Positions 11,351 through 53,863 of a DNA stretch of 64,000 bases are shown one piece after another. This stretch comes from Nitrospinales bacterium (GTDB lineage Bacteria > Nitrospinota > Nitrospinia > Nitrospinales > VA-1), in assembly GCA_965262115.1 (NCBI GenBank), contig OZ253496.1:1536001-1600000 (forward strand). The letters run 5' to 3'. The translations under genes were made by a program, and so were the position numbers. The notes beneath the pieces were generated by a model that saw nothing but the letters and a program-made list of their open reading frames with translations, had not been told where the DNA came from and did no database searches. Position 1 is the stretch's first letter. Every line of letters begins with the position of its first letter.

Positions 11351-11525
11351 CGTCATCGCGAGCGACTGTGTGAAATTCTTCATTTGCCTTCATGCCCCGA
11401 AGGGGTAAAAGGAGCGTGGCGATCCAGACTTCTGGATTTACCCTTTCAGGGCACGAAAGCTTGGGAAGAATATCTCGGCTTCGTCGCTGTTGGCTCCTCG
11501 CAATGACGTGCTATGCAAGGGTTTC
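11351..11525. repeat. CGTC REP pair with two 39-bp micro-element insertions (11369-11407, 11439-11477)
   Basis: Alignment with 2529-2639 and 7518-7634. Confidence 0.85.
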
Positions 11526-11560
11526 CCTGTCAAGGGGTGTCAAGCTGGTAGAGGTTTTTT

Positions 11561-12316
11561 GTGGAAGCAATCATATTACTTGCCGGTTACGGCTCACGTC
11601 TGGATCGGCAAGATCTTGCTCATAAAGCGCTGCTGCCTTTCGGCGAGGAGACACTGCTTTCCCGCCACTTGAAATGCCTCAAAGCTCTGGGCATTCAGAA
11701 AACCCATCTCATCCTGGGTCATAATGCTCCGGTGCTGAAATCCTATGTGCAGGAACTCAACCTCGATCTGCCGGTACATTTCATTGATAACCCGGTCTAC
11801 CGCACCACCGGCAACACATTGTCGATGGTGATGGGACTCAAACACTGCCAGGACGAAACATTGATTCTCGATGGCGATGTATTGTATCCGCCCGAGGCCC
11901 TGCTCAATTATGTCCAAAAAGCGTCGCGCTCTTCATTTGCGTTGATACCTGCTGATATCGACGACGCTGAATGCGCGAAAGTATTGTTGAATCCATCAGG
12001 AACCATCCACGCTTTCATCACCAAACGAGAACTGACCGACGAGGAAAAATCCGGTTTCAGTTTTGGTGGCGAGGCTATAGGATTTTTCATGCTGCGCCAG
12101 GAAGATGTCCCCCGGTTTGTCGCCCTGTATGAAAATAATGAGTCCGCCTACCGACCCGTCCTTTGGGAAATCCCGTTCACCGAGTTTGCCCGAAACACCT
12201 CCCTGCATCCCTGGAACGTTGAGGAAGAAGGCTGTTTTGAAATAGACACCCAAGAGGACTACTCCACCGCATTGAAGCGCTTTCAATCCCACCCGGATCA
12301 ATACCAGCTCCCATAG
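11561..12316 (+). CDS. NTP-transferase (phosphocholine cytidylyltransferase/LicC-like)
   Basis: AIILLAGYGSRL, LDGD and EIDTQED motifs. Confidence 0.8.
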   Translation: MEAIILLAGYGSRLDRQDLAHKALLPFGEETLLSRHLKCLKALGIQKTHLILGHNAPVLKSYVQELNLDLPVHFIDNPVYRTTGNTLSMVMGLKHCQDETLILDGDVLYPPEALLNYVQKASRSSFALIPADIDDAECAKVLLNPSGTIHAFITKRELTDEEKSGFSFGGEAIGFFMLRQEDVPRFVALYENNESAYRPVLWEIPFTEFARNTSLHPWNVEEEGCFEIDTQEDYSTALKRFQSHPDQYQLP

Positions 12317-12570
12317 CTAATAAAGTACAAATAAGTTAAAAAACTGTATGATTTTTAACATTTTATATTATTAATTATAATAATTTATCAGTTTTTGGAT
12401 AAATTTAAATTTTTGTTTAAATTTTTTCTCAGTTTTTAAGAAAAATTTCCTCTTTAAATACAAAAGGTTAGATACATCTCTCCCAAGTCCTCCCGAAAAC
12501 TTTTGTTTATTGGTATCTTTTTTACTTTTTAATTGTGGTTCCCAGGATTTAAGGAAACCGGTTTTGATCC

Positions 12571-13095
12571 CTAACTTTGAAGCGACTTAGAGACTTTGAT
12601 CAATTGGTCCGACAATTTGCGAATGCGCTGTTCGATTTCAGGATCGGCCAGGTTGTCTCCTTCAAAAGCCGCACCTGTAACGTAAACGAATCGGGGCAGG
12701 ACGATACATCGAAAGTCCAGCATCAGGCTGTTAGCCAGGCTCATGATGGACATATAACTGCCTTGTCCTCCAGCGGCACAAAGAAACCCCACCACCTTAT
12801 CTTCCCAACTTTTTCCGGTAAGCTCGATCAGGTTCTTCGCGGCGGCATTGGCATCGTAGTTATAAATGGGGACGGAAAGCAAAATCCCCTCAGCTTTTTT
12901 AACTCGTTCAGCAACAGATATTACCTCCGGTTGTGCGTAAGCCGAATCTCCATCACAAAGAGGTAAGGGAATATCCTTTAGAGACATAAAATCTACCGTT
13001 GCACCTGCTTGACGTAGTGCTTCCTCGGCCTGTTGTGCCAGGACACGGCTACGGCTTTCAGGGTTGAGACTACAGGCCACAATTAAATAAGACAT
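12571..13095 (-). CDS. NADPH-dependent FMN reductase
   Basis: SLNPESRS, PIYNY and KNLIE motifs. Confidence 0.85.
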   Translation of the reverse strand: MSYLIVACSLNPESRSRVLAQQAEEALRQAGATVDFMSLKDIPLPLCDGDSAYAQPEVISVAERVKKAEGILLSVPIYNYDANAAAKNLIELTGKSWEDKVVGFLCAAGGQGSYMSIMSLANSLMLDFRCIVLPRFVYVTGAAFEGDNLADPEIEQRIRKLSDQLIKVSKSLQS

Positions 13096-13200
13096 TTATT
13101 TCTCCAGATTCAAAATGGTTATCACGGAAATGATTCAAATCTTTTCCCGTTGGCTTTCCATCTTATTTACAGTATAAAATTCCAGTTATAAAATTTAATT

Positions 13201-13926
13201 TTGGGAAATTTTCCATTGCCTTTATCGTCTTATAAAGCGGTTTTTTTTGATGTCGGGGGGACTCTGATCCACGTTCACCCGTCGGTCGGGGATGTCTATG
13301 CCCGACACGCCCGCCCCTTCGGCTATTCGGGTTCTGTCGAGGTTTTAAACGAAGAGTTTCGCGCGCAATGGAAGAAAATGGGGGGTATCGAGTCTTTGGG
13401 CAATCAGAGCGGAGCCGAAGCGGAAAGAAATTTTTGGCGCAAATTGGTTTATGAGGTGTTTCAACCGCTGGGAGGGCTCGACCGGTTTGAAGAATACTTT
13501 GATCTCATTTTTGAGGCGTTTCGAGAGAAATCCAACTGGCGCGTTTATGAAGATGTGATCGAATCAAAAATTCTCGAAACTCTGAAAAAAAGAGGCGTGG
13601 TGTTGGGGGTCATTTCTAACTGGGACTCGCGGTTGACCTCCACCCTGGAAAATATTGGTCTCGCGCGGTATTTTGATTTTATCTTACCCTCTGCTGTGGT
13701 CGGTTCGGCAAAGCCCGATAAAAAAATATTTGAGGAAGCGTTAAGACGAAGTGGTGTCCAGCCTCATGAAGCCTGCCATATCGGCGATGAAATGCGAACC
13801 GATGTAGATGGGGCCCAGGCGGCTGGTATACATCCTATCCTGCTGGACCGGGACAACCGTTTTGACTTGGCGGGAGTGACGAAAGTTGCTTCCCTTAGAG
13901 AACTGAATCCGTCGGCTGAATTGTGA
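13201..13926 (+). CDS. HAD-IA family hydrolase
   Basis: FFDVGGTL, SNWD, KPD and HIGD motifs. Confidence 0.88.
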   Translation: MGNFPLPLSSYKAVFFDVGGTLIHVHPSVGDVYARHARPFGYSGSVEVLNEEFRAQWKKMGGIESLGNQSGAEAERNFWRKLVYEVFQPLGGLDRFEEYFDLIFEAFREKSNWRVYEDVIESKILETLKKRGVVLGVISNWDSRLTSTLENIGLARYFDFILPSAVVGSAKPDKKIFEEALRRSGVQPHEACHIGDEMRTDVDGAQAAGIHPILLDRDNRFDLAGVTKVASLRELNPSAEL

Positions 13927-13951
13927 AGCGGGGAAAGTGGATAGGCGGCTT

Positions 13952-14116
13952 TTAAGCCTTATAGCCTTTTATGCCATCCAGTTTAGCATTTTTAAAGCTG
14001 GCGTCTTTAGTATCGGCTTTGGTCAAGTCTGCTTTGGAGAGATCCGCCCCATGGAAAGAGACGGCGTTGAGGTCGGCCTCCCTCAAATTGCTACTGACCA
14101 GAGATGCGAAGGTCAT
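13952..14116 (-). pseudogene. Short pentapeptide-repeat protein or fragment
   Basis: SNLREADLNAVSFHGADLSKADLTKADTKDASFKNAKLDG. Confidence 0.55.
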
Positions 14117-15614
14117 GCCGACCGTTTTTTTTTTGCTTTTCCCGGAATTCCAGAGCCAATAAAAAATAAAAAGGGAGATACTCCACCCAGGGGATCCATG
14201 GGCTAAATGCTTGAAGTTCTTGATAATCAAAATAAAAGTCGAGGTAATAAAGGCCCACCAGTCCGGTCAATACCATCCACGACCGCGCGGGGAAGATACA
14301 CAAAAATGGCACCACCCAGCAGAGATACCACGGGTTCTGCACCGGACTGAGGAGAAATACCAAAGCCATGATCCAGAAAAGCCCGCGAACAAATTCTTCG
14401 GGTTGTTGAAGGAGAGAAGCCCCCTTAACCAGTAACCAGAATAAAACCCCGATTAATGTAAGGGCCACTGTAACCTTGCTCAGAAAAATTGGCAGGGGAT
14501 TGGAAAAAATCGTTTCACTCGCGAACCCACCCGACACATTGTTAAAGATGAAAACCAGAATAGCAAAAATGCTGTCGTTGCTCTGCCAGTACAGGCTGAA
14601 GGCTTTGAGTCCATCAAACATCTGCAATCCGATCCCCATAAAGGGTAGATACCCCAAAATGGCCACTCCGAGAAACAGACTGGTATTGCCGAAAGGAGTC
14701 AGCCAGGCTTTCCCCCCCGACTGGCGCATTTTTTCATAACCGGCCTTGAGGTATAGGGGAAGCAAAATCACGGGGTACAGTTTTCCCAGAAGGCCAAAGG
14801 CCAGAAACAGGGTCGCCAAGGTATGGCGGTGACAAAGCAAAAAATAAATGGAGCCAGTGAGCAGGGATATACCGATGATATCCAAATGGGTCGAGTTAAA
14901 AGTTTCCTTGATGATCAGAGGGCTCCAGAAATAAATCAGGCAAGCGGATTTATCTATCCCCAACCTCGAAAGAATGCCAACGATAAAAACTAAAGTCATG
15001 ATGTCGAAAATTAAAAATCCGGAACGCAGGGCGACAATGCTGTCGGGTTTTATCTGATGCGCCAGGCGGAACACAAACTGCGCCATCGGTGGGTAGATGG
15101 TGGGCACATCTGGATGGTTCACCCGTTCCAAGTATTTAAGGGATTGGGGAGACGCCCATTTCAACGCATCCAGTTGTTCCAGTTCGCGCTCGTTGCGTTC
15201 AACATAAGTTTCATAATAGCTTTCTGGATTCTGAATCCTTAGCGCCTTGAAGTCGTGCGCTTCGGCGGGGGCGTATTCAAATGGATTGATTCCATTCGCG
15301 AATACTTTTCCATCCCATAAATAGCGGTAGACGTCATCTTCCTGAATCTGCTGAGAGGGGAGGATGGCGGCACGAAACAACAGGCCGAACACGATGATCA
15401 TCCAAAAACTGCCTGCGTCTCCGGGACGCTTGCGCACGATATACCAAGTGAGGCCATAAAGTGTACACAGGGAAAAATAAACAACAAGATAAGTGAGGAG
15501 GGGTCTTTCTGAATATCCCTCTCCCCAGTTGAATTGGTGGGAAAGCTGGGTCAGGAAACCATAAAGCAGGAGGCTGGCTGTCCCCGTTAACAGGATAGGG
15601 AGTCGGGAACGCAT
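14091..15614 (-). CDS. Membrane GT-C glycosyltransferase (GT87-like)
   Basis: EDDVYRYLWDG, TIYPP and NPWY motifs; many TM helices. Confidence 0.75.
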   Translation of the reverse strand: MRSRLPILLTGTASLLLYGFLTQLSHQFNWGEGYSERPLLTYLVVYFSLCTLYGLTWYIVRKRPGDAGSFWMIIVFGLLFRAAILPSQQIQEDDVYRYLWDGKVFANGINPFEYAPAEAHDFKALRIQNPESYYETYVERNERELEQLDALKWASPQSLKYLERVNHPDVPTIYPPMAQFVFRLAHQIKPDSIVALRSGFLIFDIMTLVFIVGILSRLGIDKSACLIYFWSPLIIKETFNSTHLDIIGISLLTGSIYFLLCHRHTLATLFLAFGLLGKLYPVILLPLYLKAGYEKMRQSGGKAWLTPFGNTSLFLGVAILGYLPFMGIGLQMFDGLKAFSLYWQSNDSIFAILVFIFNNVSGGFASETIFSNPLPIFLSKVTVALTLIGVLFWLLVKGASLLQQPEEFVRGLFWIMALVFLLSPVQNPWYLCWVVPFLCIFPARSWMVLTGLVGLYYLDFYFDYQELQAFSPWIPWVEYLPFYFLLALEFREKQKKNGRHDLRISGQ

Positions 15615-15620
15615 ACCCGG

Positions 15621-16489
15621 CTAGGGATTGTGGGCAAAAGAGCTCTGCCCCTCCAGGGTTTTCAACTCTTCGATTTCTTGATCTGCAAGAATTTTATAAA
15701 TATCCAGAACGCTTCGGTGTACATAGGGATCGTCATTTTTCAAGGCCAGGGCAGACCAGTAGCGGGAAAGGGCCTCCCGGAACATTTTTTTCTTCTTATA
15801 CAAGTCCCCGAGTTTGACATAAATTTCCAACCGCTTTGGTTCCAGAACTGAAACCCTTTCAAAATAGTTCGCGGCCTCAAAATAATCTCCCGACCGTTTA
15901 TATTCTTCAGCCAGAGCTTCCAGATAAGCAGGGTTCTCTGCTTCCAGATCAATGGATTGTTTCAGGTGCTCAATGCCTTGAGCAAACTTTTCCCGTTTCA
16001 GGTGCAACCGCCCCAGCCGATAGTGGGTGAGAGCATGTCGGCTATCAATACTCAAGGCCTTGAGATATTTTTGCTCCGCCTCGGCAAACTTTCCTTCCCG
16101 CTCCTTGAACTCTCCCAATCAGGATTTTTATTTGCCGCAGTTTCAAGTTGCCTGAAAGCCTCGTCCCGGTTTCCCTTGTTGTAATGAATTCCCGCCAGGT
16201 TAATGCGGCTGAAAGTGTCTTCGGTGATTTTCAGGATATCCCGGTAAAGGTTTTCGGCCTGGTCGGTCTTGTCCTGGTCCTGATATACAATGGCCAGGTT
16301 GTACATAGAGAAGGTGTCGTTGGGGTTTTTCCGGAGTGCCAGGTTGTACTCTTCAATGGCTTTGGCCAGTTCCTGATTGTCGTAGTGCTCCACGCCTTTG
16401 TTGAAGTGGCTGTCGATAGGAGCGGGAACATTGGCGCAGCCGAAGAAAAATAAAGCCGCTATTATAACCCCGTTGTTTATTTTAATCAT
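15621..16489 (-). pseudogene. TPR lipoprotein, frameshifted near 16115
   Basis: FFGC lipobox; TPR repeats continue across two overlapping ORFs. Confidence 0.7.
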
Positions 16490-16495
16490 CGTTGT

Positions 16496-17611
16496 CTAAT
16501 TGCCGGATACTTTGTCCAGCCGTTTCATCCGGATGTTGGCTTGTCCGGGAGCAGTGGCCTCCGCGGGTGGAACGGGCACTTCATCAGATTTGCGAATCAG
16601 TTTCCAGGGGTTCCGTTTCAAGTCTTCGGTCAGGGATTTCAGGTTTTGCGATGTTTCGTTCATGTTCTGGATAAGTTGAAGCAGGTTTCTGCGGTTTTCC
16701 ACCATGATGGAGTTGCCCTGGCCGAGAGTCTGTTCAACGCTCGTTGCGGTGCGGTCTATATCGATGGTGATTTCCCGTGCGTTCGTTTCCATACTATTGA
16801 TCAAACTGGTTACACCCGGTCGCGTGTCAGCAAGCAGGATTTCCATTTCCCGCGTCAGGTTATGAATCTGATCGATGATTTTGCGGATGTCCTTATCCTT
16901 GTCGGTGAACAGCTTGTCGGTTTTTTCTGAAACCGAAGCCACATGGTCGAAAGTGGATTGCAGTTTGCCGCTGTTTTTATCCAGCATGTCGGAAACCTTT
17001 TCGGAAATCTCCAGGGCATTTTCCATATTGGCCCGGATATATTTGCGGTTTTCTTCCAAGATCGTATCGACATTTGCGAGAGAGGTTCGAACATCTTTTA
17101 ATGTGGCACGGGCATCGGTAACAAGTTCCCCTGTCAGTTGGGTAAAACGCCGGATCTCCAACACCACCTCGGTAGCCATGTCGCCAATTTTAGCGATTTC
17201 AAACGAGTCCTCCCCAATCAACTCCTCATTGTCCTCTAAAGGTGGTGACCCTTGCGTACCGGGCCGCACGTCTATATAAAGCCCTCCCATCAGTCCGGAA
17301 GTTTTGATCATGGCGACGGAATTCTTTTTGATGATGATCTGAGGGTTGATTTCGGCCATCACTACCACTCGGTCATGGCCCTGATCATCCCCTAGCAATT
17401 CTATGTCCCTGACCGAGCCAATATCGAGCCCGGCATAACGTACCGGCGCGCCCACTTCCATCCCACCCGTAAAATTGAACACGATACGCAACATCTTCAT
17501 GGGTTTGAAATAATCCTTAATATCGCCCAACACGAAGATCATTACGATCAAAACCACCATGCTGACGAAAATAAAAAACCCGGCTTTAACTTCTGAGGAA
17601 CGATATTCCAT
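16496..17611 (-). CDS. MlaD/MCE-family protein with long helical tail
   Basis: GMEVGAPVRYAGLDIGSV and GLMGGLYI motifs. Confidence 0.88.
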   Translation of the reverse strand: MEYRSSEVKAGFFIFVSMVVLIVMIFVLGDIKDYFKPMKMLRIVFNFTGGMEVGAPVRYAGLDIGSVRDIELLGDDQGHDRVVVMAEINPQIIIKKNSVAMIKTSGLMGGLYIDVRPGTQGSPPLEDNEELIGEDSFEIAKIGDMATEVVLEIRRFTQLTGELVTDARATLKDVRTSLANVDTILEENRKYIRANMENALEISEKVSDMLDKNSGKLQSTFDHVASVSEKTDKLFTDKDKDIRKIIDQIHNLTREMEILLADTRPGVTSLINSMETNAREITIDIDRTATSVEQTLGQGNSIMVENRRNLLQLIQNMNETSQNLKSLTEDLKRNPWKLIRKSDEVPVPPAEATAPGQANIRMKRLDKVSGN

Positions 17612-17614
17612 AGA

Positions 17615-19711: not shown

Positions 19712-19713
19712 AG

Positions 19714-21331: not shown

Positions 21332-23305
21332 ATGAAAGCTATAGCCTGTGAATTAAAGTCTATTTGCAGAATCAGCCAGCGGAGAGCCTCCGCAGGCGTA
21401 ATGTTTTTCCTTGGCCTTCGTGCCCCGGAGGGGTACAAATTGCAATATCTTTCCCTGGCTAGAAATGATTTTCCCGGTTGGGCAAGCCATTGCCCAGTTG
21501 CCTCCACGGCTAGTGGGCGGAGAGCCTCCGCTGCAGGTTTATTCATGCTCCTGTTCCTGGCGAGTTGCACGACAATACCCGGAGTCCCGGATTCAACGAC
21601 TTCTGACTTGTCTTCTTCCTATGCGGTTTTGTCGTTCGAAAAGAAAAAACAACTTTCCGGGAAACTGGATACGCGGGATCCCCGCTCCTATTACCACTAC
21701 CTGCTGGCCCTGAAGGCGGAAAAGGGCTACCAGATGGATCAGGCCGCTGTGCATTATAAAGAAGTGGTCCAGTATGATCCGGAAACAGAAAGGTTCCATG
21801 AAAAATGGGTTCGCCTGTTGCTCCGTACCGGTCAGTTGGATGAGGCCGTTGAAGCCGGTCAAAATGCACTGGCCCGTTTTCCCAACAACGAGGAAATTTT
21901 GATGGTCCTGGGGGATATTCTGGCCAGTCAGGGGAAAGCGGAAGAGGCCATCACGTATTATGACCGGATTAGCCGGGTTGCCTCTGGAAATGCCCGGGCT
22001 CCGTTACTGAAAGGTTCTTTGTTAGAGGGGTTGGAGCGATTTAACCAGGCTTTTGAAGAGTATAAGAAAGCGGCGTTGATAGAGCCGAAAAATCCTCTGG
22101 TGCAGTTTTATCTGGGCCGGGCCTATTTGCGGGCCAACCAGTTGCCGGAGGCCGAAAAGAGTCTTGAAACGGCAGTTTCCCTGAAGCCCAACCTTCTCCA
22201 GGCCCGACACCATTTAGCCTGGGTGCTCGAACGTCAGGGCAGAACCGTTGAAGCGTTGAAAGAATATGGGCTATTGTTAAAGCTGACACCGGATAACGAA
22301 TATATTAAAAATCGGGTTTCACAGCTTCACTCTTCGGATTCTTTGGGTCAGAGCCCCTCGCAGGGTTTTGAAGCCATTCCCTCCGGCTTGGCAGAGCAAC
22401 CCGATATCCATATGCGTATCGCAACGATATATTTTGAGCAAACTCTATATATGAGAGCATTGGATGAGTTTCAGCTTGTTCTGGCCAAACACGATTACAA
22501 GGATCCGCATGTTCTCATGGCCCGGATTTATGAAACTCACGGCCGCCTGGACAAAGCCGTTGAGGAGTTTGAAAAACTCAGAAAGCTGGAACCGCAATCC
22601 CTGGACCTTCTCCTTTATACGGCCCGGCTCTATAGCTTGATGAAAAAAACACAAAAATCGGTGGGTCTGCTCAATGAGGCCGTTGCAATAGAACCGGAGA
22701 ACGACCAGATACATCACTCTCTGGCACTGGCCTACATGGCCCTCAAAAAAAATGAGGAGGCCATTGCAACCATGCGGAAAGCTTTGGCTTTGAACCCTCA
22801 AAAAGATTCCTACTATTTTGATCTGGGCGCCCTGATGGAAAAAGCCGGAGATTACCAAGGGGCCATTGCAAATATGAGGCTGGCGATTGAGTTAAATCCT
22901 TTGCACTATAACGCACATAATTTTTTGGGGTACATGTATGCGCTGGAAGGACACGACCTTGACCAGGCCCTTGAGCATCTGAAAAAGGCCCTGACCATCC
23001 AGCCTCGCAACGGCTATTTCCTGGACAGCCTGGGTTGGATTTATTTCAAAAAAGGCGAATCGGAAAAAGCTTTAACGCAAATTCAGAAGGCCTTGATCTA
23101 CACCGAGCCGGACCCGGTACTTTATGACCACCTTGGGGATATTCTGTTCTCTCTGGAAAATTACGATGAAGCCAATTGGGCATGGAGAAACAGCCTGTTT
23201 CTCACTGTGAATCCAAAAGACGACCTGGGTGGAGAAGCGCCGGACCCGCAAACACTTAAGAATAAAATTAATAAATCGAAAAGGCTTTTACAAAAGAGCT
23301 ATTAA
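21332..23305 (+). CDS. Multi-TPR lipoprotein (start uncertain; N-terminus contains repeat insertions)
   Basis: LASC lipobox; many TPRs; NFLGY and DSLGW motifs; upstream of the lolB-like gene and ispE. Confidence 0.85.
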   Translation: MKAIACELKSICRISQRRASAGVMFFLGLRAPEGYKLQYLSLARNDFPGWASHCPVASTASGRRASAAGLFMLLFLASCTTIPGVPDSTTSDLSSSYAVLSFEKKKQLSGKLDTRDPRSYYHYLLALKAEKGYQMDQAAVHYKEVVQYDPETERFHEKWVRLLLRTGQLDEAVEAGQNALARFPNNEEILMVLGDILASQGKAEEAITYYDRISRVASGNARAPLLKGSLLEGLERFNQAFEEYKKAALIEPKNPLVQFYLGRAYLRANQLPEAEKSLETAVSLKPNLLQARHHLAWVLERQGRTVEALKEYGLLLKLTPDNEYIKNRVSQLHSSDSLGQSPSQGFEAIPSGLAEQPDIHMRIATIYFEQTLYMRALDEFQLVLAKHDYKDPHVLMARIYETHGRLDKAVEEFEKLRKLEPQSLDLLLYTARLYSLMKKTQKSVGLLNEAVAIEPENDQIHHSLALAYMALKKNEEAIATMRKALALNPQKDSYYFDLGALMEKAGDYQGAIANMRLAIELNPLHYNAHNFLGYMYALEGHDLDQALEHLKKALTIQPRNGYFLDSLGWIYFKKGESEKALTQIQKALIYTEPDPVLYDHLGDILFSLENYDEANWAWRNSLFLTVNPKDDLGGEAPDPQTLKNKINKSKRLLQKSY

Positions 23306-34297: not shown

Positions 34298-34483
34298 CCC
34301 ACTAGCCGTGGGGGCAGATAGCCATAACTTTTTCCGGCAAAAAAAGTTGTCGCGGCTTAATGGGTTGGGGTGATTGACCTCCAGTGGGGTTGCCGTGCCC
34401 GAGTGAGAGGATGTTTTATTCTTCTTTAGCTTTCATGATCCTGTGATTTCCCCTGACGTTAACTTCATGCCCTGCAGGGTACA

Positions 34484-36525: not shown

Positions 36526-37443
36526 ATGAAGGCATCCGAAAAAAGAAAAAAAGTTCATACCGTAAAAGGTGAAAGCCCCTTAATAGATACTCCGTTCACA
36601 CAGATATACTTGGGAGACTGTGCGGAACAGTTGCAAGATATTGACAGTAGCTCTATAGATTTAATCGTTACCTCTCCGCCTTATGCCGACCAACGGAGTA
36701 AAACCTACGGTGGTATCACGCCAGACAATTATGTTGAATGGTTTTTGCCTGTTTCCGCAGAGCTATTACGAGTACTAGAGCCTACGGGGACCTTTATCCT
36801 CAACATAAAAGAAAAGGTTGTAAATAGTGAGCGCCATACCTATGTTTTAGAACTCATCCTTGCTATGCGCAAACAGGGTTGGTTGTGGACAGAAGAGTTT
36901 ATCTGGCATAAGAAAAATTGTTATCCCGGCAAATGGCCCAATCGGTTTAGAGATTCCTGGGAGCGTTTGTTGCAATTTAACAAAAATCGCAAATTTAAGA
37001 TGTTTCAAGAAGAAGTCATGGTGCCAACGGGAGATTGGGCCAAGACCCGGCTTAAAAAACTGAGCGAGACAGATAAGACCCGTGACGAATCAAAAGTGGG
37101 TAGTGGCTTTGGAAAAAATATTTCAAACTGGACGAACAGGGATAAAGCCTATCCTACAAATGTTTTGCAAATGGCAACGGAATGTAGCAATAAAAGCCAC
37201 AGTGCCGCTTTTCCACCTACTTTGCCAGAGTGGTTTATCAAGCTTTTTACTTCGGAAAATGATGTTGTGCTTGACCCTTTTGCGGGTTCAGGAACGACTC
37301 TGAAAATTGCCAAGCGAATGAATCGGCATGCGATTGGTATTGAAGTTAATAAAGACTATTACGATCATATTTTAGAAGATTTGGATGAAAGACAATATTT
37401 TTTAATGGAAGAGTCCAAAAAATATGTCGCAAATCGTTCTTGA
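36526..37443 (+). CDS. Beta-class amino DNA methyltransferase (SPPY, likely m4C)
   Basis: TSPPY precedes DPFAGSGT. Confidence 0.92.
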   Translation: MKASEKRKKVHTVKGESPLIDTPFTQIYLGDCAEQLQDIDSSSIDLIVTSPPYADQRSKTYGGITPDNYVEWFLPVSAELLRVLEPTGTFILNIKEKVVNSERHTYVLELILAMRKQGWLWTEEFIWHKKNCYPGKWPNRFRDSWERLLQFNKNRKFKMFQEEVMVPTGDWAKTRLKKLSETDKTRDESKVGSGFGKNISNWTNRDKAYPTNVLQMATECSNKSHSAAFPPTLPEWFIKLFTSENDVVLDPFAGSGTTLKIAKRMNRHAIGIEVNKDYYDHILEDLDERQYFLMEESKKYVANRS

Positions 37444-38173
37444 TGTTGTCAGAGAATTTGTTAGGGGTAATATTGGTCATTTTCATAAAAAGCGGTTGCA
37501 AAATTTGGAGAAGTTGAAGTTAGGCAAAATCCTGAAACGTAAAAATCCCTACCTTTTTAAATCTAAAAATATACTTACCTCTGAGGCATTGGTCAAAACT
37601 TTGTTGGATGCCCACCTGTCCTCACAAGAAGAAACTATTTTTGGGGACTTTCTCGAGGAACTCGCGATATTTATCAATCAACAAGTTTATGCTGGAAAAA
37701 AATCTTCTGCAGATGGTATAGATTTAGAGTTTGACCGTGAGGGAATTCATTACATTGTTTCCATTAAGTCCGGACCTGATTGGGGAAACAGTAGCCAGAT
37801 TAAGCGAATGAAAGAGAATTTTAAACAAGCTCAAAAGATTCTTCGTACAGGAAACTCTAAACTCCATGTCAGGGCGATAAATGGTTGTTGCTATGGTAGA
37901 GGTGGCAGGGAGGATAAGGGGGACTACCATAAATTATGTGGGCAGCAATTCTGGGCTTTCATTTTCGGCAATGACAATATTTATACGGAAATTATTGAAC
38001 CTCTTGGATATCAGGCTAAAAAGAGAAATGAGGATTTTGACAAGCACTATGCCAGGATTGTAAACCAGTTTTCAAAATCATTTATGAATCATTTTTGTGA
38101 CCAAGGTGAAATTAATTGGGACAAATTGGTGCAATTTAATTCGGGCAAAAATAAGGTTTCTTTGAAAATTTAA
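37424..38173 (+). CDS. Type II restriction endonuclease (EcoO109I/PmeII-like)
   Basis: KNPYLF, ETIFGDFLE and GIDLEF..SIKSGPDWGNS motifs; overlaps the MTase. Confidence 0.75.
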   Translation: MSQIVLDVVREFVRGNIGHFHKKRLQNLEKLKLGKILKRKNPYLFKSKNILTSEALVKTLLDAHLSSQEETIFGDFLEELAIFINQQVYAGKKSSADGIDLEFDREGIHYIVSIKSGPDWGNSSQIKRMKENFKQAQKILRTGNSKLHVRAINGCCYGRGGREDKGDYHKLCGQQFWAFIFGNDNIYTEIIEPLGYQAKKRNEDFDKHYARIVNQFSKSFMNHFCDQGEINWDKLVQFNSGKNKVSLKI

Positions 38174-41830: not shown

Positions 41831-42072
41831 TTTTTCAATTAATTAGACTGTTGGCTCACCCGGGTAATTATTCAGCAAAAGTTTGACCGGCTTTTTTCGA
41901 TGAACTGGATGGGGAATTGCCCCCTGCCTGATTGTCTAGGTTATGAGTGCCTCCTTGCGGACCTTCTGAATTGTGTTGTAATACAGGGCATCTCAAAAAA
42001 TTGCTTTTGTACCCCTGTGGGGCATGAAAGCTGATGGGGAATATAACAGCCACGAGCGGCCATTATGACAAG

Positions 42073-42480
42073 GAGACCTTTGCATAAGTCGAAAATCGAG
42101 ATGCTTCGACATACCCCTCCGGGGCAAGAAGGCAAAGGTCGAGTATCACTAGCTCAGCATGACAATACTGGGCCATTTTGTCATGCTGAGGAACAAGGCG
42201 ACGAAGACGTGACATTTTTCCTTACCCTTCGTGCCCGGCACGGGTAATCTCGCTTTGCATAGGCTTGGGGATTTGGGGTTGCCGTCTTTGCGAGGAGGCT
42301 TTAGCCGACGCGGCAATCCAGGTTTTGGTTTTTCTCTCGGGGTCATGCTGAGCCTGTTGAAGAATCTCGCCTTGCATAGGCCTGGGGATTCTTCACTGCG
42401 TTCAGAATGACAAGAAACGCCGGTTTGTCATCCTCAAGGAGCCAACGGCGACGAATGATCCGGGGTTACGCAAAGCTCTC
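42073..42480. mobile_element. Composite MITE (GAGACCTTTGC...GCAAAGCTCTC) with several CGTC REPs and two 39-bp micro-elements
   Basis: Terminal inverted repeats and internal homology to 39598-39725. Confidence 0.75.
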
Positions 42481-44723: not shown

Positions 44724-44773
44724 AAAACTCCTGTAGTTCGGCGGTGTTGACCTCCCTCCCTGTCAAGTCTTTT

Positions 44774-46218
44774 GGGCCTGTTGCCCAAACCTTTTGATAG
44801 AAGCGTGGGTTTATAAGGATTATAATTTATCTGGCTAGTTTTTGTTCTTCTACAGTTTTAATCTTTTTTTCCGGGAGTCATTCCCATGATGAAACGCGAA
44901 ACCCCGTCCCAGAGCGTATTCTTTAACTAGGCCGTGAATCTTGAAGATCGGAGTCCTCCAGATCACGAGTTGCGGCAAGTTTCTTCCGTTTTGAACCTGG
45001 ATTTTGTGTATGAACAAGTAAAGGATAAGTACGGCCACAATGGCAACGAATCGGTTCCGCCTCCGGTGATGCTAAAACTGATGTTGCTGCTCATCTTTTA
45101 CAACGTTCGTTCCGAACGTGAGTTGATGCGTACGCTTCCGTAGCGGATGGATTGGCTCTGGTTTCTGGGTTATGGTCTGGACACTGTGATTCCTAATCCC
45201 AGCGTATTATCGAAACCAAGGGTTACGAGAAACTTTGTGAGAGACTGGGCGAACCGGAGGAATCCAATAATCGGCGGGTACGCAGAGAAGTTAATGTTCG
45301 TTACCGTTCTACGACCGCTCCGGATGCGGCGATTGTGCCGCGCGGGGGTTCGCGTTTGCGTTATAAAGTACATCGTTCGGTGGATCCGGCGGCGGAAGTG
45401 ATCACCACGACTGAGGTGACACGTGGCGATGTAGACGATTCGCATCGGTTCAGTGCCATGCTGGAAGCGCACCAGGAAAATACCGGGATGTCAGCGAAGA
45501 CCGCAGTGGCCGACAGTAAATACGGTACGGTGGAAAACTTTCTTGCCTGCAAAGATATGGGCATTCAACCCCATATGCCCGACCTGAAAAAGAGTCAGGA
45601 AACAGACGGCAAACGTCATGGAATATTTTCCAACAGCGCATTTACATTCGACCCTGAAAGCGATACCTATATCTGCCCGGTGGGCAAACGCTTGCGGCTG
45701 AAGACCTGCCGGTTAAAAGAGCAGCGTATGTATTACGCCGCCAGAGCAGACGACGGTAATGCCTGCGAACTAAAATCCCAATGCACACGTAGTGCAACCG
45801 GACGCACGATCCAACGGGTTGATCGTCAGGACGACCTCGAAGAAATGCGCGCAATGGCAAAGACCCCAAAAGGAAAACAAGACCTGAAAACGAGACAGCA
45901 TCTTATGGAACGGTCATTCGCATATTCGGTGCCCTTGGGATTCAAAAGGGCACGGTGGCGAAGATTATGGCTGATCCAGATTCAAGAATACCTGACCGCA
46001 TCCATTCAAAACATCAAACGAATGATCCAACACCTGAAAAAACCGATTCACAGTCATGCACTGAAGGTCGTACAACGATTCAAAAACTGCTTGCAGGCTT
46101 CAACTTGGGGAGGAATGAATCTGGGTTTTGGGATTTCAATTTAGAAAAGAAAATTCGTAAGAAATACACAAAATTAATATCAGCAACCCTTCACGGCAAC
46201 CCTTTGGGCAACAGGCCC
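44774..46218 (+). mobile_element. IS1182-family element with defective transposase
   Basis: Perfect 16-bp TIRs GGGCCTGTTGCCCAAA (44774-44789/46203-46218); TTTT on both flanks; VRSERELM, ADSKYG and YICPVGK motifs; in-frame TAG stops and an internal deletion. Confidence 0.85.
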
Positions 46219-46278
46219 TTTTCTTGACTACAAGAGGGTAAAAGAAGCGTGGCAATCCAACCCTCCCCCAGCCCCTCC

Positions 46279-46647
46279 CTATGAAGGGAGGGGAGGCAGA
46301 TGTTTTAAAATCTTTTCAAAAACTCCATCCAGGTTTTCATAAACATCCTGATTGGTAAATCGCAGAAACCGTATCCCCATATCTTCGATGGTTTTCTGCC
46401 GGATTTCATCCGATTGGATCGCCGTTCCACTGAAATGAGAGTCTCCATCGATTTCAATCGCGAGTTTTGCCGATGGGCAATAAAAATCCAGAATGTATCG
46501 GTCGACACTGTATTGTCGCCCAAACTTATATCCACCGGCCTGTCTGTTTCGCAAAAACTGCCACAAAGCCACTTCCGCTAGCGGCATTTCTTTGCGCAAG
46601 GATTCTCTTTTGGTTTTTTCTGTGTTTCTGTTGAAAATTTTTACCAT
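46279..46647 (-). CDS. DUF559 (Vsr-like PD-(D/E)XK) endonuclease flanked by 39-bp inverted repeats
   Basis: RESLRKEM, YILDFYC, IEIDGDSH and LRFTN motifs. Confidence 0.88.
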   Translation of the reverse strand: MVKIFNRNTEKTKRESLRKEMPLAEVALWQFLRNRQAGGYKFGRQYSVDRYILDFYCPSAKLAIEIDGDSHFSGTAIQSDEIRQKTIEDMGIRFLRFTNQDVYENLDGVFEKILKHLPPLPS

Positions 46648-46809
46648 AGCTTTCTACATTCCAAGCCCCCCTCCCTTCATAGGGAGGGGCTGGGGGAGGG
46701 TTGGATCAAAGTTAGCATCCGAACCTGAAAACAGGTTAACAAATAGTTGAAGATGGTGTAAATAATTTTTGTGTCTGCTTTGAGGCTGGAGGCGGCTCAA
46801 GTACTTTTT

Positions 46810-47092
46810 TTATAGTCCCTCCCTATGAAGGGAGGGATAGATATCGGCAGAGAGGGTTTGAGTCATTTTTTGATGCTCGGCAAACTCCAGGCCGTTGTCA
46901 TAAGTGATGGTGTGAACCCGGTTCCGGTGAGGGGCAAGCCCCTGTTCGATGCGTTGGCGGACCTGTGGGACCTGTTTGGTTTTCGATGCGGTCAGAACCG
47001 TATATTGAGTTTTGCGCTCCACAAGAGTGGCAACAACGCCGACCTTTACCGATGAGGGTATCGCCTTCCCAGTCTCCGACACGAAATGGCAT
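46810..47092 (-). pseudogene. IS30-family transposase fragment
   Basis: GDWEGDT, TLVERKT and TITYDNGLEF motifs across frames. Confidence 0.8.
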
Positions 47093-47189
47093 TTTGTTAT
47101 TTTTATCTATTGTGGATCATTCTGGATAAAAATACGGCGGAATTAAAAGAGGCCGGGTCTTTCGGGGAACGGTTGTCGCTAATTTAGCT

Positions 47190-48284: not shown

Positions 48285-49604
48285 GGGAAACAGTTACAGG
48301 TTCCGCAATCAGGTCATAATCCGCCGCGTGCTTTATGGTTACCGGAATTATTTCTCCGGGTTCGGCTTCACATTTTTCGAGGATGACCTGTCCGTCAATA
48401 TCCGGTGCCTGGGAGGCGAGCCTTCCCGTCATCAAATAATTTTCCTGCGGGTCAAAACCTTCCACCAAAACCGGTTCCACCCTGCCCACGCGCTCCCGGT
48501 TTTTTCTGAGAGCAATATCTTTTTGAAATTCCATCAGGATATCGCGGCGCTCTTCTTTGACCTCCTGCGGTACCCGGTCGGGATAATCGAAGGCAGTGGT
48601 GCCTTCCTCATCCGAATAAGTAAAAATCCCAACATGGTCGAATTCCATTTCACAAAGAAACCGGACCGTATGTTTAAAATGCGTCTCGGTCTCCCCCGGA
48701 AATCCGATGATAAACGTGGTTCTCAGCGCCACATCGGGAATTTTTAATCGAACTTCTTCGAGCATTTTCCGCACCCCGCCTGCCGTTTCATGCTTTTAAG
48801 CATCTCGTCATGCGTATGTTGCAGAGGCACATCAATGTAGCGGCAGACTTTGGGCTCTGAGGCGATGAACTCAATCACCTCCGAGTTCAAAAAGGTCGGG
48901 TAACAATATAAAAGCCTGATCCACTCCAACCCATCGACCTTGGCCATTTCTGCCAGCAAGCGAACCAGTCCGTCTTTCATTCCCAAGTCAAAACCGTACA
49001 TGGTGGTGTCTTGCGAAATCAGGTTAAATTCTTTGACTCCCTTGCTGGCCAGGTTCTCGGCCTCGGCCAGAATGGATTCCGGCGAGCGACTGCGCATCGG
49101 CCCACGCATTTTCGGAATGATGCAAAACGCGCAACGGTTGGAGCAACCTTCGGAGATTTTTAAATAAGCAGTATAAAAAGCTGTGCTCAACAACCGGTCG
49201 GTGTACGACTCATAATATTCGGCGGGTGTGGCGACATGGTTTTTGGATAACGGGTCTGTATCCCCAATGATGTTTTTCAATTGAGGGTACTGGCCCACCC
49301 CCAGCAGGTGGTCGATTTCTGGAATTTCATCAAGCAGTTCCTGACTATACCGTTCGGCCAGACAACCGGTGACGACCAACTGTTTGCATTCCCCCTCGGT
49401 CTTGTGCCGGGCCATTTCCAGAATCGTGTCGATCGATTCCTTTTTGGCAGACTCTATAAAGCCGCAAGTGTTGACAATGATTACCTCTGCATCTTCTTCA
49501 TTCTGGGTGAGGCTGAATCCAGAAGAAACCAGATCGCCCAGAACCCTTTCGGTGTCCACCGTGTTTTTCGGACACCCCAAACTCACCATGCCAATTTTTT
49601 TCAT
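48274..49604 (-). pseudogene. rimO: Ribosomal protein S12 methylthiotransferase, frameshifted near 48775
   Basis: SLGCPKN, NTCGFI, CSNRCAFC and C-terminal APDIDG TRAM motifs across two ORFs. Confidence 0.9.
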
Positions 49605-49639
49605 TCTCTGTCTTAACTCCCTGAATCCCCTTGTCAGGC

Positions 49640-49888
49640 AGACCTTTGCGTAAGTCTATAAAGCAGAAAAGCGAGATGCTTCGAGATACCCCTACGGGGC
49701 ATGAAGTTTAATGAAGAGGATATCACATACCCCTCCTACCCCTCCGGGGCATGAAGTTAATGGAAGGGGATATAACAGGCTCAAGAAGGCAAAGGTCGAG
49801 TATCACTAGCTCAGCATGACAATAAAAGGCTATTTTGTCATTCTGAGGAGCTATTGCAACGAAGAATCTTGGGTTATGCAAAGGTCTC
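49640..49888. mobile_element. MITE/CGTC composite carrying three stacked 39-41 bp micro-elements
   Basis: Filled counterpart of 39598-39725. Confidence 0.85.
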
Positions 49889-49937
49889 CTTCTTAGGGGG
49901 AAGTTCTTTTAAGTATTACCCTTCCGGGGCACGAAGG

Positions 49938-50627
49938 CTAATGAAGAGTATCACGTGCGCTTGAGCGTTTGGTCCGCTTTATAGGCAATGCAGTGCTGGC
50001 AGCATGTGATACCCCTTCACTTGTTTCATGCCCCGTAGGGGTACGCCGAGCGGTTAACTTTTTATCCATTTTGCGAATGAGTTCATCAAAACTCTTTTTT
50101 TTAATCACCTTGTAAAACTGACTGCGCAAATTGTTCCGCATGCTGATCCCGTCCAGAATGACATCCACCACCTGCCATTTACCTCCGGCCAGAGTCAGAT
50201 GAAAATCGATGTCGACTTCCCCTTCCTTTTCATGAATCACCGTCAGGGGAACCACAACAACTTTCTTTTTTTCTTTGGTTTTTCCATATTCCAGATCCAG
50301 TTCGGCAAAAAATTTCGCAGAACTGGGAAATGCCACATGGACGAACAGGTCCCCGAGCAGGGTTTTAAACTTTTCTCGCTCGGGATCACTGCGCTTAGCC
50401 CAATGTTTTCCTAAAGCTTTTTTGCTGATTTCTGCGACATTCAGCAAACCAAGAGCAGATTGGGAATGCTTCTGGTTGTCTGCCTCTTCTAAACCCGAAA
50501 CATCCGCTTTAATCTGTTGAATTTCTCCCAACAACTTTTTCACCGAATCCTGGGGGTCTTTGGTTTCTGCCCAGAGCGGACTGGTGGTCAAAACAATAAA
50601 AAGAACAGCACTTAAGGTTTTTTTCAT
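49938..50627 (-). CDS. MlaC/Ttg2D-like periplasmic lipid-binding protein with repeat-derived C-terminal extension
   Basis: Signal peptide; ALGKHW and WQVVDVILDGISMRNNLRSQF motifs. Confidence 0.8.
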   Translation of the reverse strand: MKKTLSAVLFIVLTTSPLWAETKDPQDSVKKLLGEIQQIKADVSGLEEADNQKHSQSALGLLNVAEISKKALGKHWAKRSDPEREKFKTLLGDLFVHVAFPSSAKFFAELDLEYGKTKEKKKVVVVPLTVIHEKEGEVDIDFHLTLAGGKWQVVDVILDGISMRNNLRSQFYKVIKKKSFDELIRKMDKKLTARRTPTGHETSEGVSHAASTALPIKRTKRSSARDTLH

Positions 50628-50736
50628 ATTCGTCTATGATAGGTTCAGCATTGCATATTTAGTGGGGGCTTCTCATAAATTATAACGCAAACCGCAAGTT
50701 CATTTAACAAATTTTAATCCCTTTATAAAACGACAC

Positions 50737-51519
50737 ATGGCTGAAGACTCATCCCAAACAAAGAGACTTTTAAAGGGCCGGGTTTTCCTACTGGCAGTAT
50801 TTCTCGTGATTCTAACCGGGAAAACCTCCTTTGCCGGGCCGGCCGAGATCGATAAACAGTATCAGCAAGCCAAAACCTTGAAAGAGTTTGAACGCATCGC
50901 CGAAGAAATCCGGAAAACCCTCGAAAAAGAACCGGGCAGCCCCCAATGGCAATGGCGACTGGCTCGATCCCATTACGCCATCGCCAAACGAACGGAGGAC
51001 GAAGACATCGCAAACCAGCAATACGACCTGTGCATCGAGCACAGTAGCCGGACTCTGGAAATGCAACCGGACTCGGCCATCGGTTATTTTTTCCGTGCCA
51101 TATGCCGAGGCAAACAGGGGGAGATGAAAGACATGTGGTCCAGCCTGGGAATCATCGATCCTTTTGAAGAAGATATGAAAAAAGCGTTAGAGCTGGATCC
51201 GGCTATCCAGAACGGCGGCCCGAACCGCGCGCTGGGCAAGTTTTATTTGGAGTTGCCCTTTTTTCTAGGTGGCAGCACAGATCAATCGATTTATCACCTT
51301 AAAGAAGCAGTTCGCCTGAGTCCTGATTACGCAGAAAACCACCTTGGGCTGGCCCAGGCTTATTATGCTAAAAATAATTTCACCTCCGCGCGAAAATCGC
51401 TTTCCACCCTACTTAGTCTGACCGATAATGTTGCGGACAATGAGGACCTTTTAAAACTCAGGACAAAAGGCCAGGAGTTGATGAAAAAGCTGACCACTGA
51501 TTATTCCCACACCTTATGA
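50737..51519 (+). CDS. Secreted TPR-like protein
   Basis: Signal peptide; WRLARS and RALGKFYLELPFFLGGS TPR-like pattern. Confidence 0.7.
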   Translation: MAEDSSQTKRLLKGRVFLLAVFLVILTGKTSFAGPAEIDKQYQQAKTLKEFERIAEEIRKTLEKEPGSPQWQWRLARSHYAIAKRTEDEDIANQQYDLCIEHSSRTLEMQPDSAIGYFFRAICRGKQGEMKDMWSSLGIIDPFEEDMKKALELDPAIQNGGPNRALGKFYLELPFFLGGSTDQSIYHLKEAVRLSPDYAENHLGLAQAYYAKNNFTSARKSLSTLLSLTDNVADNEDLLKLRTKGQELMKKLTTDYSHTL

Positions 51520-53216
51520 TTAAAGAAATTAGAATCCGAAATTTTGCCACTATAGAAAATCTTGCGGTGAACTTTGAGAAAGGATTGAACGTGCTGACCG
51601 GTGAAACCGGCGCGGGTAAATCCATCATCATCGACGCGCTGAATCTCCTGCTAGGAGGTAGGGCCGATACCGATTCCATCCGTTCCGGAGAAACCACCGC
51701 TTTTGTGGAAGCAGCCTTCGAAGTCACCGACCCCATGACTCTCGACTTGATTTTGGAATTCGGCATCGAAATAGAGGATGGAGAACTTCTTGTCAAACGC
51801 CAGATTTCCAACGCTGGGAAAAATCGCTGCCTACTCAATGATAGTCCGGTCACGGTTTCCACCCTGGCAAAAATTGGTGACCGCCTGGTCGATCTGCATG
51901 GGCAACACGATCACCAGACCCTGCTTCATCCTGAAGTCCACGTCGATCTTTTAGACCTGTACGGCAAATGCAGGACACTCCGCGATGAGTTCTCCGGGAA
52001 GTTCTCGGACCACCAGACTGGGACGAAAAAATTGCAGTCCATGAAAATGGATGAGCAGGAGCTGGTACAAAAACAGGAGTTCCTGAACTTTCAACTCAAC
52101 GAGATTGATCAGGCCCAGCTCTCGGAGGAAGAAGAGGAAGAAATCAAGGCGGAGCGCAATAAACTGAAACACGCCGGACAAATTCGCGAAGGCCTGCAAA
52201 AAAGCCAGTCGCTGTTGACCGATGAAAGCGGCTCCATACTGGAAAACCTGGGGCAGGTTTTGAAAGAGCTGGAATCGGTTCTCGACATCGATCCCAGCAT
52301 GAAAGAAACGGTTGAACGGTCCCGTTCCGCTTTCTATGAACTGGAAGAGGTGGTGGAGTCTTTACGAAACTATGACCGATCTTTGGAGTTCAATCCGAAC
52401 AGACTGGAAGAAATTGAAGACCGGCTCGCCGAGATAAGCGGACTAAAACGAAAATACGGCAACGACATCGCAGAAATTTTAAAGCGCCGGGAACAGATCG
52501 CCCAGGAGTTGGAGCAGTTGGCCTCCAATGATGAAAACATGAAAGCCCTGGAAGAAGAACTGAAGAAAAAAGAAAAGGCGCTTGCCGAACTCAGCATCCG
52601 CCTGGCTGAAAAAAGAGAAGCCGCCGCCAAAAACCTTACCAACAGTGTTGAGAAGGAGCTGAAAGAACTGAGCATGGGCAGCGTCCAGCTTGGCGTGCGT
52701 TTTGATTATCCGACCGACCCTGAGGGATTCATCCTGTTCCGCAAAGAAAAAATGAAAGCCACACCAACCGGATTGGGCACACTGGAATTTTTGTTTTCGT
52801 CGAATCCGGGTGAAGAACTGCGCCCCCTGGCTAAAATCGCCTCAGGCGGTGAATTATCGCGGGTGATGCTGGCTTTGAAATCTATCTTGAACGACCAGGA
52901 CACCATCCCGGTGATGATCTTCGATGAAGTGGATACCGGCATCGGTGGAAGAGTGGCAGAAAAGGTGGGAACCAAATTACAAAAAGTCGCCAGTACCAAA
53001 CAGGTTTTTTGCATCACTCACCTGCCACAAATTGCCGGGATGGCTTCTTTCCATTACCGGGTAGAAAAAGAAGTAAAAGGGAAACGCACACGCTCCACCA
53101 TCCGCCAACTGGAACATGAAGAACGCGTTGAAGAACTGGCCCGCATGTCGAGCGGAGAAAACATCACCAACGCCTCCCTCAATCACGCCCGCGAAATGCT
53201 TCGGCCCACCCGCTAG
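51516..53216 (+). CDS. recN: DNA repair protein RecN
   Basis: TGETGAGKS, HGQHDHQ, ASGGELSR, FDEVD and ITHLPQIA motifs. Confidence 0.97.
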   Translation: MIKEIRIRNFATIENLAVNFEKGLNVLTGETGAGKSIIIDALNLLLGGRADTDSIRSGETTAFVEAAFEVTDPMTLDLILEFGIEIEDGELLVKRQISNAGKNRCLLNDSPVTVSTLAKIGDRLVDLHGQHDHQTLLHPEVHVDLLDLYGKCRTLRDEFSGKFSDHQTGTKKLQSMKMDEQELVQKQEFLNFQLNEIDQAQLSEEEEEEIKAERNKLKHAGQIREGLQKSQSLLTDESGSILENLGQVLKELESVLDIDPSMKETVERSRSAFYELEEVVESLRNYDRSLEFNPNRLEEIEDRLAEISGLKRKYGNDIAEILKRREQIAQELEQLASNDENMKALEEELKKKEKALAELSIRLAEKREAAAKNLTNSVEKELKELSMGSVQLGVRFDYPTDPEGFILFRKEKMKATPTGLGTLEFLFSSNPGEELRPLAKIASGGELSRVMLALKSILNDQDTIPVMIFDEVDTGIGGRVAEKVGTKLQKVASTKQVFCITHLPQIAGMASFHYRVEKEVKGKRTRSTIRQLEHEERVEELARMSSGENITNASLNHAREMLRPTR

Positions 53217-53763
53217 GCGCGGGGCCGACTGCAATAGCTTTCCCTGGCAAGCAATAGGTTAGCCCGGCCTGATGAGCCGCCGAGGGCAAAAACTTCTCCC
53301 CTGACAGGTGGACGTGATATTTTTCCTAAATTTTCGTACCCCGAAGGGATATTGAGGGGGGTTGATTTTTTAACTCCCTCTTTCTCAAACTCGAACAATA
53401 GGAAGACGTTTTGTTCGACGGGTTGGGGTGATTGACCACAAGAAGGGGGTTTGTCGTCATTGCGAACGAAGTGAAGCAATCCAGTTGCTAGTACCCCAAA
53501 ACCGTATGAAACACAGCACCAATTCCGACACACCAGTAAATGTCGGCACCAATAAGGTTCCAAACTGCGGCTGATTTCTCTAAAGGTCATTGCATCACCG
53601 CCTTAACCACAAAGAAAAAGAACGCGAGCATGGTGAGGACGGTGTTCGCCACCGCCGACCAGATCATGATTGTGTGCGCAATATTCCCATCACTAACTTC
53701 ATGCCCCGTAGGGGGGGTATAATAGTTTTTCCATATCACTTGCCATTCTGAGTTTGTAGGTCT

Positions 53764-53863
53764 GTCATGCTGAGCTAGTGATATTTGATCTTTGAATTCT
53801 TGCCCCGGAGGGGTATGTCGAAGCATCTCGATTCTTCGATTTTTCGACTTATGCAAAGGGCTC
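53764..53863. repeat. Half MITE/CGTC REP with a 39-bp micro-element (53777-53815)
   Basis: Reverse-strand homolog of 42073-42163. Confidence 0.75.

Follow-up and report, generated by a model that had tools for sequence, protein, structure and literature searches.

A 39-41-nt mobile repeat of the Nitrospinaceae whose last base covaries with the base at the foot of its hairpin

A short repeat with fixed ends

The DNA analysed here, 64,000 nt from a Nitrospinales bacterium (assembly GCA_965262115.1, contig OZ253496.1, positions 1,536,001 to 1,600,000; the window), carries dispersed copies of a non-coding micro-element of 39-41 nt. On the strand that begins with TACCC, the one numbered throughout, a copy is laid out as TACCC-N-TNC-N-GGGCA-X'-GAA, followed by a variable, purine-rich middle of ~12-14 nt and the end ATATCAC-X, where X' is base 16 and X the terminal base. 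Copies and nearby genes are collected in Table 1. An earlier note on this DNA had called the copy near 53677 degenerate, as we also find, and had proposed that stem variants keep their pairing; this is so at 11439, 42208 and 59190, whereas the copy at 34442 lacks a hairpin base and provides no clean CCCT/AGGG case. Rfam returned no match to the element in the window, and no description of the element or of its end-pairing was found in the literature, in a search whose coverage left out subscription journals and supplements.

The element pattern is present in 19 of 41 related genomes, and a reversed control pattern gave 0 matches. The hairpin part occurs in 29 of 92 genomes of the phylum, 28 of which belong to one family; in a scan of GTDB genomes, all 80 matches listed were Nitrospinota records. 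The sole element-bearing genome outside the family, G047, has four copies of a variant ending in CTTG, all at a single Ssn-type repeat site (L273-L275). Intact copies are also found on viral contigs with phage-like genes (L136-L143, L147), six of them in one 50-kb contig, and such contigs are a possible route for the element between lineages.

Table 1. Copies of the micro-element in the window, followed by neighbouring genes (16/end: base 16 and terminal base)
Feature	Position	Strand	Remarks
Copy, 39 nt, T16/A-end	7535..7573	-	Same 89-nt duplicated segment as 11369
Copy, 39 nt, T16/A-end	11369..11407	-	Duplicates 7535 within 89-nt repeat; missing from earlier note
Copy, 39 nt, T6:A10 stem variant, C16/G-end	11439..11477	+	Within CGTC/Ssn-type repeat
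Copy, 39 nt, C16/G-end	21397..21435	-	Also in G013
Copy, 40 nt, hairpin short by one base, T16/A-end	34442..34481	-	TACCC-TGCA-GGGCA
Copy, 39 nt, T16/A-end	42010..42048	+	
Copy, 39 nt, A16/T-end	42112..42150	+	In loop region of Ssn-type repeat
Copy, 39 nt, G6:C10 stem variant, C16/G-end	42208..42246	-	
Copy, 41 nt, T16/A-end	49687..49727	+	Head-to-tail ahead of copy at 49728
Outer copy, A16/T-end, loop-split by inner copy	49728..49807	+	Parts 49728-49736 and 49778-49807
Inner copy, 41 nt, T16/A-end	49737..49777	+	Nested in loop of outer copy
Copy, 39 nt, T6.G10 wobble, C16/G-end	49917..49955	+	
Copy, 39 nt, T16/A-end	50005..50043	-	
Copy, 39 nt, C16/G-end	53313..53351	-	Slight decay
Degenerate copy	53677..53716	-	End not callable
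Copy, 39 nt, A16/T-end	53777..53815	-	Same host-repeat site as 42112
Copy, 5' end decayed, T16/A-end	59093..59133	+	Missing from earlier note
Outer copy, C16/G-end, loop-split	59160..59238	-	Parts 59160-59189 and 59230-59238
Inner copy, 40 nt, G6:C10 variant, T16/A-end	59190..59229	-	
DNA methylase adjoining EcoO109I-type restriction endonuclease	36526-38173		
DDE transposase fragment (PF13751)	45335-46144		
DUF559 nuclease gene	46279-46647		Flanked by long inverted repeats, distinct from those of the other DUF559 gene
DUF559 nuclease gene	53960-54721		Flanked by long inverted repeats, distinct from those of the other DUF559 gene

Of 324 sites, 64 gave a sequence with an identical counterpart elsewhere in the data when the two flanks of the copy were joined in silico. 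The same test gave 0 matches when the terminal base was kept and 1 when the first T was kept; because the flank joins match exactly without X, the terminal base is part of the element and there is no target duplication. The exact empty allele of the site at 42112 was found 25 times. At the orthologous sites of 21397 and 34442, relatives differ by whole repeat islands and offer no clean single-element empty allele (the island around 21397 is absent as a whole from G019 and other relatives), and contigs from four sequencing runs contained no interpretable single-element skip; no RNA data set was listed among runs holding the element. Copies nest in their own loop, in their own middle, in the opposite orientation and head-to-tail; there are 36 distinct head-to-tail pairs, with 19 junctions in genome G000.

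Base 16 covaries with the terminal base

The earlier note had observed that the base after GGGCA predicts the last base of the element. The relation extends to the two copies it had not listed, such that bases 16 and end are Watson-Crick complementary in all 18 callable copies of the window. In G000, 436 matches to the start motif yielded 268 copies that passed both start and end filters; complementarity holds in 245, and the 23 exceptions include several mis-called ends. Counted by distinct flank pairs (n=160), the complementary fraction is 0.86, as compared with 0.48 expected. Pooling G000, its relatives and viral and metagenome loci (a few chance matches from other organisms remain) gave 358 unique sequences, distributed as TA 169, CG 112, TG 38, AT 17, GC 5 and other 17; thus 303 of 358 are Watson-Crick and all four pair types occur, the fourth, G/C, appearing outside G000.

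We also aligned 99 copies of 39 nt, one per flank class. Pair 16:39 is CG in 43, UA in 36, UG in 9, AU in 6, GC in 2 and other in 3; its covariation score was reached by none of 500 shuffles, and partners slid along the alignment scored ~0. Pair 6:10 of the stem covaries as well (CG 71, GC 14, UA 10, UG 2, other 2), and the remaining stem pairs, being fixed by the search pattern, are uninformative.

Shared ancestry of three subfamilies, a caveat of the earlier note, could mimic such a pattern. When a tree was computed with both positions left out, base 16 changed 43 times, and 34 of these changes were accompanied by one at the terminal base; eight control columns shared 2-18 of their 16-81 changes with that base. 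When the terminal base was shuffled among close relatives, 38.8 +/- 3.5 complementary pairs were obtained, against 59 of 63 observed. Among near-identical sequence pairs, both positions differ 17 times and a single position 20 times. One host site holds A/T, G/C, T/A and T/G in different genomes, and under the strictest clustering of sites, 60 of 75 are Watson-Crick, against 34 expected. The caveat applies to the A/T class, which sits mostly at one Ssn-type repeat site, but not to the pattern as a whole, given the fourth pair type and the tree control. The covariation is real and goes beyond three ancestral subfamilies alone, and the relatedness controls make an account by ancestry only unlikely.

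The joined ends fold into one helix

T1 pairs with A15, and base 16 is the next base after A15; joining tail to head places the terminal base immediately in front of T1. Because X' follows A15 and X precedes T1, the tail-head junction forms one helix, whose rungs are C-G17, X-X', T1-A15, A2.C14 (a mismatch, read as G.T on the opposite strand), three C-G pairs and the 6:10 pair, closed by a loop of 3 nt. At the natural tandem junction L038:1530-1563 the fold includes the X pair whichever strand is taken, and among computed junctions folded with DNA parameters X is paired in 237 of 296 on the TACCC strand and in 254 of 296 on the other. A single linear copy and the alignment consensus fold to the short hairpin alone.

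The two strands can be compared through their wobbles. T.G at 16:end outnumbers C.A by 38 to 4 unique sequences and by 31 to 4 flank classes, and the lineage in G047 shows G17.T; judged from these sequences, both point to pairing on the TACCC strand, as in compensatory change bridged by G.U, and possibly to pairing in RNA. Conserved positions in decaying copies have no general C-to-T strand bias, as read from a sequence logo. At 6:10 the wobble excess is slight (13:5, p 0.10), and collapse of tandems may account for some T/G copies. A GNA triloop, described as a stable DNA motif in the accessible text of PMC13037366, favours the other strand, as do the G.T at 2:14, which leaves the stem unbroken, and a lower folding energy. 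Some caution is due in naming the strand.

Under one alternative, the ends pair in the same way and the mobile form is TACCC-strand RNA, which a reverse transcriptase or a splicing-like reaction would copy back; the pair would mark the 3' end, a role like that of gamma-gamma' in group II introns. An RNA intermediate has reportedly been proposed for cyanobacterial small dispersed repeats (SDRs), and the tolerance of T.G on the TACCC strand and the G17.T lineage speak for this reading. Against it, reverse transcriptase (PF00078) occurs in 10 of the 28 genomes that have the element and in 3 of the 24 that lack it, with only a decayed, eukaryote-like fragment in G000 and none in G007 and G019; the element has no orientation bias with respect to neighbouring genes; the triloop is a DNA motif on the other strand; and some T/G and T/T copies can arise by collapse of tandems in which T/A stands first. 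We regard it as unlikely, if the most serious of the competing accounts. That the pair is kept for compact folding of the inserted copy, in transcripts or in a host repeat, and not for movement, would accommodate the change of pair type at one and the same host site and the RNA-like wobble bias, but both gene-relative orientations are equally common, and folding of the linear copy does not predict the 2-bp helix, which would have to close a loop of 20 nt; this seems to us highly improbable.

Covariation could also arise free of selection, if template switching in tandems copied an arm of the junction hairpin or if founder subfamilies were amplified in host repeats. Tandems do exist, many copies ride host repeats and almost all A/T copies sit at a single host site. 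Yet template switching should also remove the A2.C14 mismatch, and 262 of 264 sequences retain it (the search pattern accounts for part of this number). A wobble bias of 38:4 and the presence of four Watson-Crick types are expected from neither route, and the tree and within-cluster permutation speak for covariation beyond relatedness. We give this explanation little weight.

Base 16 as a target guide

The earlier note likened the pairing to that of IS608 and ISDra2. In those elements, according to the available portions of two papers, a 4-nt guide located 5' of a subterminal hairpin selects the target and base-pairs with the nucleotides 5' of the cut (PMC6006769; PMC3479197). The pair itself is real and lies exactly at the element boundary; what is lacking is flank covariation, a strand bias and, in G000, G013 and G007, the transposase domain PF01797 (Y1). 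Mutual information between base 16 or other element columns and flank bases peaked at 0.26, below the null 95% value of 0.31 (75 site clusters), the variable middle has no excess complementarity to the flanks, and insertion sites share no conserved tetranucleotide. No target guide was found in base 16 or in the variable middle. In G000, 129 copies are on the leading and 139 on the lagging strand, with origin and terminus estimated from GC skew, a count that hitch-hiking on host repeats could blur.

G000, G013 and G007 are the three near-complete, copy-rich genomes; in the family as a whole PF01797 occurs in 15 of 52 genomes, 11 of the 28 that have the element and 4 of the 24 that lack it, mostly in a long form of ~330 residues, and 1 of the 11 Y1 loci fetched has an element nearby. 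Its absence from G000, G013 and G007 would be compatible with gene loss after the element had spread, which is possible. The element shares with IS200/IS605 the lack of a target site duplication, to which the 64 exact empty alleles attest; there is a single terminal hairpin in place of separate left and right subterminal ones. Dependence on an IS200/IS605 element is not supported, there being no cognate Y1, no 4-5 nt guide target, one hairpin and no lagging-strand bias.

For the TnpA-REP of E. coli, two guide bases at the hairpin foot have been proposed to pair with bases on either side of the cut (PMC3479197, as far as its accessible text goes). The arrangement of T1-A15 and X-X' around the joint resembles this geometry, and by that analogy HUH-type chemistry stays possible. 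That an IS200/IS605 TnpA or REP-associated TnpA reads base 16 as a cut-site guide thus has in its favour the local geometry, a pair flanking the boundary and the absence of target duplication, but every expected relation to flank, target and replication strand is missing, as is a matching distribution of PF01797; we think it improbable. A stem pair across the joined tail-head junction is preferred over an IS608-type guide because it needs fewer assumptions.

The search for an enzyme and an autonomous partner

No enzyme was found in a Pfam scan of 59 proteins of the window or among other open reading frames (ORFs) of G000, which were inspected by self-BLAST and by eye, so that a member of an undescribed enzyme family may be present. 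No RAYT gene was seen among G000 ORFs flanked by elements or in the Y1 loci fetched, and a REP/REPIN with RAYT was rejected on the element's sequence, there being no fixed GTAG foot with a CT cut and the foot base taking four states together with the end base. No extra tyrosine recombinase is common to G000, G013 and G007. In hand counts over genomes at least 90% complete, DUF559 occurs in 14 of 22 element-bearing and 3 of 10 element-free genomes, and a small SsnA-like GIY-YIG protein in 13 of 22 and 1 of 10. None of Y1, reverse transcriptase, DUF559 or an additional tyrosine recombinase follows the distribution of the element; the enrichment of GIY-YIG is suggestive but confounded, as the element rides Ssn-type repeats and related genomes are not independent. 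SsnA is a single-strand nuclease that cuts near its own repeats, and the part of its description available to us mentions no joining activity (PMC11893778).

A long autonomous version with the same ends was found neither among G000 start motifs that lack an end nor in low-copy genomes, nor in ORFs near elements (272 loci), nor in 13 viral loci; the few putative prophages concerned carry short copies only. Two further candidates were set aside. As an IS110-dependent donor the element would have a 2-nt core common to its two ends and the target, whereas both flanks are free and the resident IS110 recombines at positions 6-7, not at the ends; and the RYYYAAC and GTTRRRY boxes of an integron cassette are absent from the consensus.

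Proposed mechanism

We conclude that there is a real, selected base pair between the end and the hairpin foot of a very small mobile repeat. The reading we favour, and consider somewhat the likelier course, is that the element moves as a single strand with its tail joined to its head, the 16/end pair being the stem rung beside the joint. On a single strand of DNA or RNA, bases 16-17 would pair with the last two bases and stack on T1-A15, so that the phosphates at the two boundaries are brought close to each other. An enzyme provided in trans, working by strand transfer or by cutting and ligation, could then join tail to head, giving a dumbbell-like circle, and flank to flank; the joint would be reopened and transferred into a loosely chosen, often hairpin-rich target without base pairing to it. 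Copies would in addition spread passively in host repeats and in an IS3-family element. A 40-bp double-stranded circle is too small to form. We infer that the 16/end pair either holds the boundary phosphates for joining or is read in the joined circle.

Several points weigh against this proposal. The helix extends only 2 bp beyond the joint, and the evidence as to strand conflicts between the TACCC strand and the other. Covariation alone fits a free circle and a transient fold-back of the integrated strand equally, and neither a circle nor an excision product nor an enzyme has been observed. Of the 36 natural tandem junctions, 14 combine an upstream terminal base with a downstream base 16 that is not its pairing partner. 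The tree was built from 37-39 nt and is poorly resolved; a hidden ancient split between T/A and C/G with convergent middles would inflate the coincident changes, and many copies are pseudo-replicates borne by host repeats, for example in G007.

To our knowledge, how mobile repeats of fewer than 50 bases move has been an open question since the cyanobacterial SDRs. The family described here provides a testable handle, with a predicted junction sequence, a defined strand question and a natural series of variants at the scissile position, some matched, some wobble and some compensatory. Should the mover be identified, it would amount to a scarless single-strand insertion system with a substrate of <45 bases and little target restriction; if ancestry alone is at work, this is one more lineage-specific repeat. 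A bolder extension, which we offer tentatively and hold to be less probable than its negation, is that a circularly permuted 8-bp hairpin spreads as a 39-41-nt single-stranded circle whose cut-and-join site is set by its own stem alone. It would then rank with the smallest mobile units that specify themselves, and the strand-transfer activity moving it would be an undescribed one, which may act on all SDR-like micro-elements across phyla.

Host repeats and carrier elements

Insertions into Ssn-type repeats in G000 favour one orientation by 64:1, with few independent sites involved, and wherever T/A forms a tandem at such a repeat with a resident C/G or A/T copy, it is the T/A copy that stands first (13 of 13). 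The copies seen in G007 lie within an Ssn-type (CGTC) repeat amplified as a composite (L338:17723-18275, L340, L341), which also adjoins a gene for a 94-residue SsnA-like protein. A micro-element copy lies close to the end of the first ORF of an IS3-family element, by which it has been spread (G000:C1:696149 and six more, with the same flanks), and some of these IS3-borne copies were later struck by IS110.

The IS110-family element inserts at the hairpin CT, positions 6-7 (G000:C1:1213045-1213995 and ~25 full or partial copies outside the window). Its left non-coding region contains TTTACCC and CCCGAAG, matching both sides of the target, which we take to be what a bridge-RNA target loop would look like by comparison with IS621. 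The resident IS110 thus uses the micro-element hairpin as target, not as donor, and its ends do not match. The decayed reverse-transcriptase fragment of G000 lies in a gene-poor stretch (G000:C1:49300-51900) that is possibly non-bacterial DNA in the assembly.

Comparison with known systems

By size, precision and self-nesting, the micro-element belongs with the cyanobacterial SDRs. SDR1-8 of Nostoc and its relatives, from Elhai et al. in 2008, are reportedly 21-27 nt long, non-coding, precisely inserted and self-nesting, with compensatory structure. Like them, the micro-element is tiny (<100 nt), dispersed, non-coding, lineage-restricted and precisely inserted, nests in itself and in other repeats, and has compensatory structure; it differs in its 39-41 nt, its occurrence in Nitrospinaceae, the lack of a fixed target and, possibly, the covariation of its last base with the hairpin foot. 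Among papers that cite the SDR work (PMC3116915, PMC4390886), the accessible part of the second describes precise insertion of SDR5 into HIP1.

Resemblances to better understood elements are partial. With IS200/IS605 (IS608, ISDra2) the micro-element shares an end hairpin, the lack of target duplication, pairing next to the boundary and probably a single-stranded form, but it has one hairpin and not two, is cut at the hairpin foot, follows no 4-nt guide-target rule, and has neither a replication-strand bias nor a TnpA gene. REP/REPIN sequences and their TnpA-REP (RAYT) offer a short intergenic hairpin with a kept mismatch and two foot bases that could pair across the cut; the micro-element, in contrast, moves as one unit whose ends are fixed and whose tail is 20 nt long, its foot varies with its end where theirs is a fixed GTAG/CT, and no RAYT gene is flanked by its copies.

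End complementarity is also a property of the attC sites of integron cassettes. The likeness is one of logic only, in that a site is rebuilt from the cassette's own two ends on circularisation and the crossover takes place in a folded single strand, as set out in the available text of PMC3053210; the micro-element has neither RYYYAAC/GTTRRRY boxes nor a gene, and its stem is 8 bp, as compared with sites of 57-141 bp. Read on its opposite strand, it resembles Helitron2/Helentron elements, whose 5' end is complementary to a stretch just upstream of the terminal hairpin and for which a joined-end intermediate is reported in the part of PMC5148889 that is accessible. Those elements are eukaryotic, kilobases long and encode a Rep-helicase, whereas the inverted repeat of the micro-element is 2 bp.

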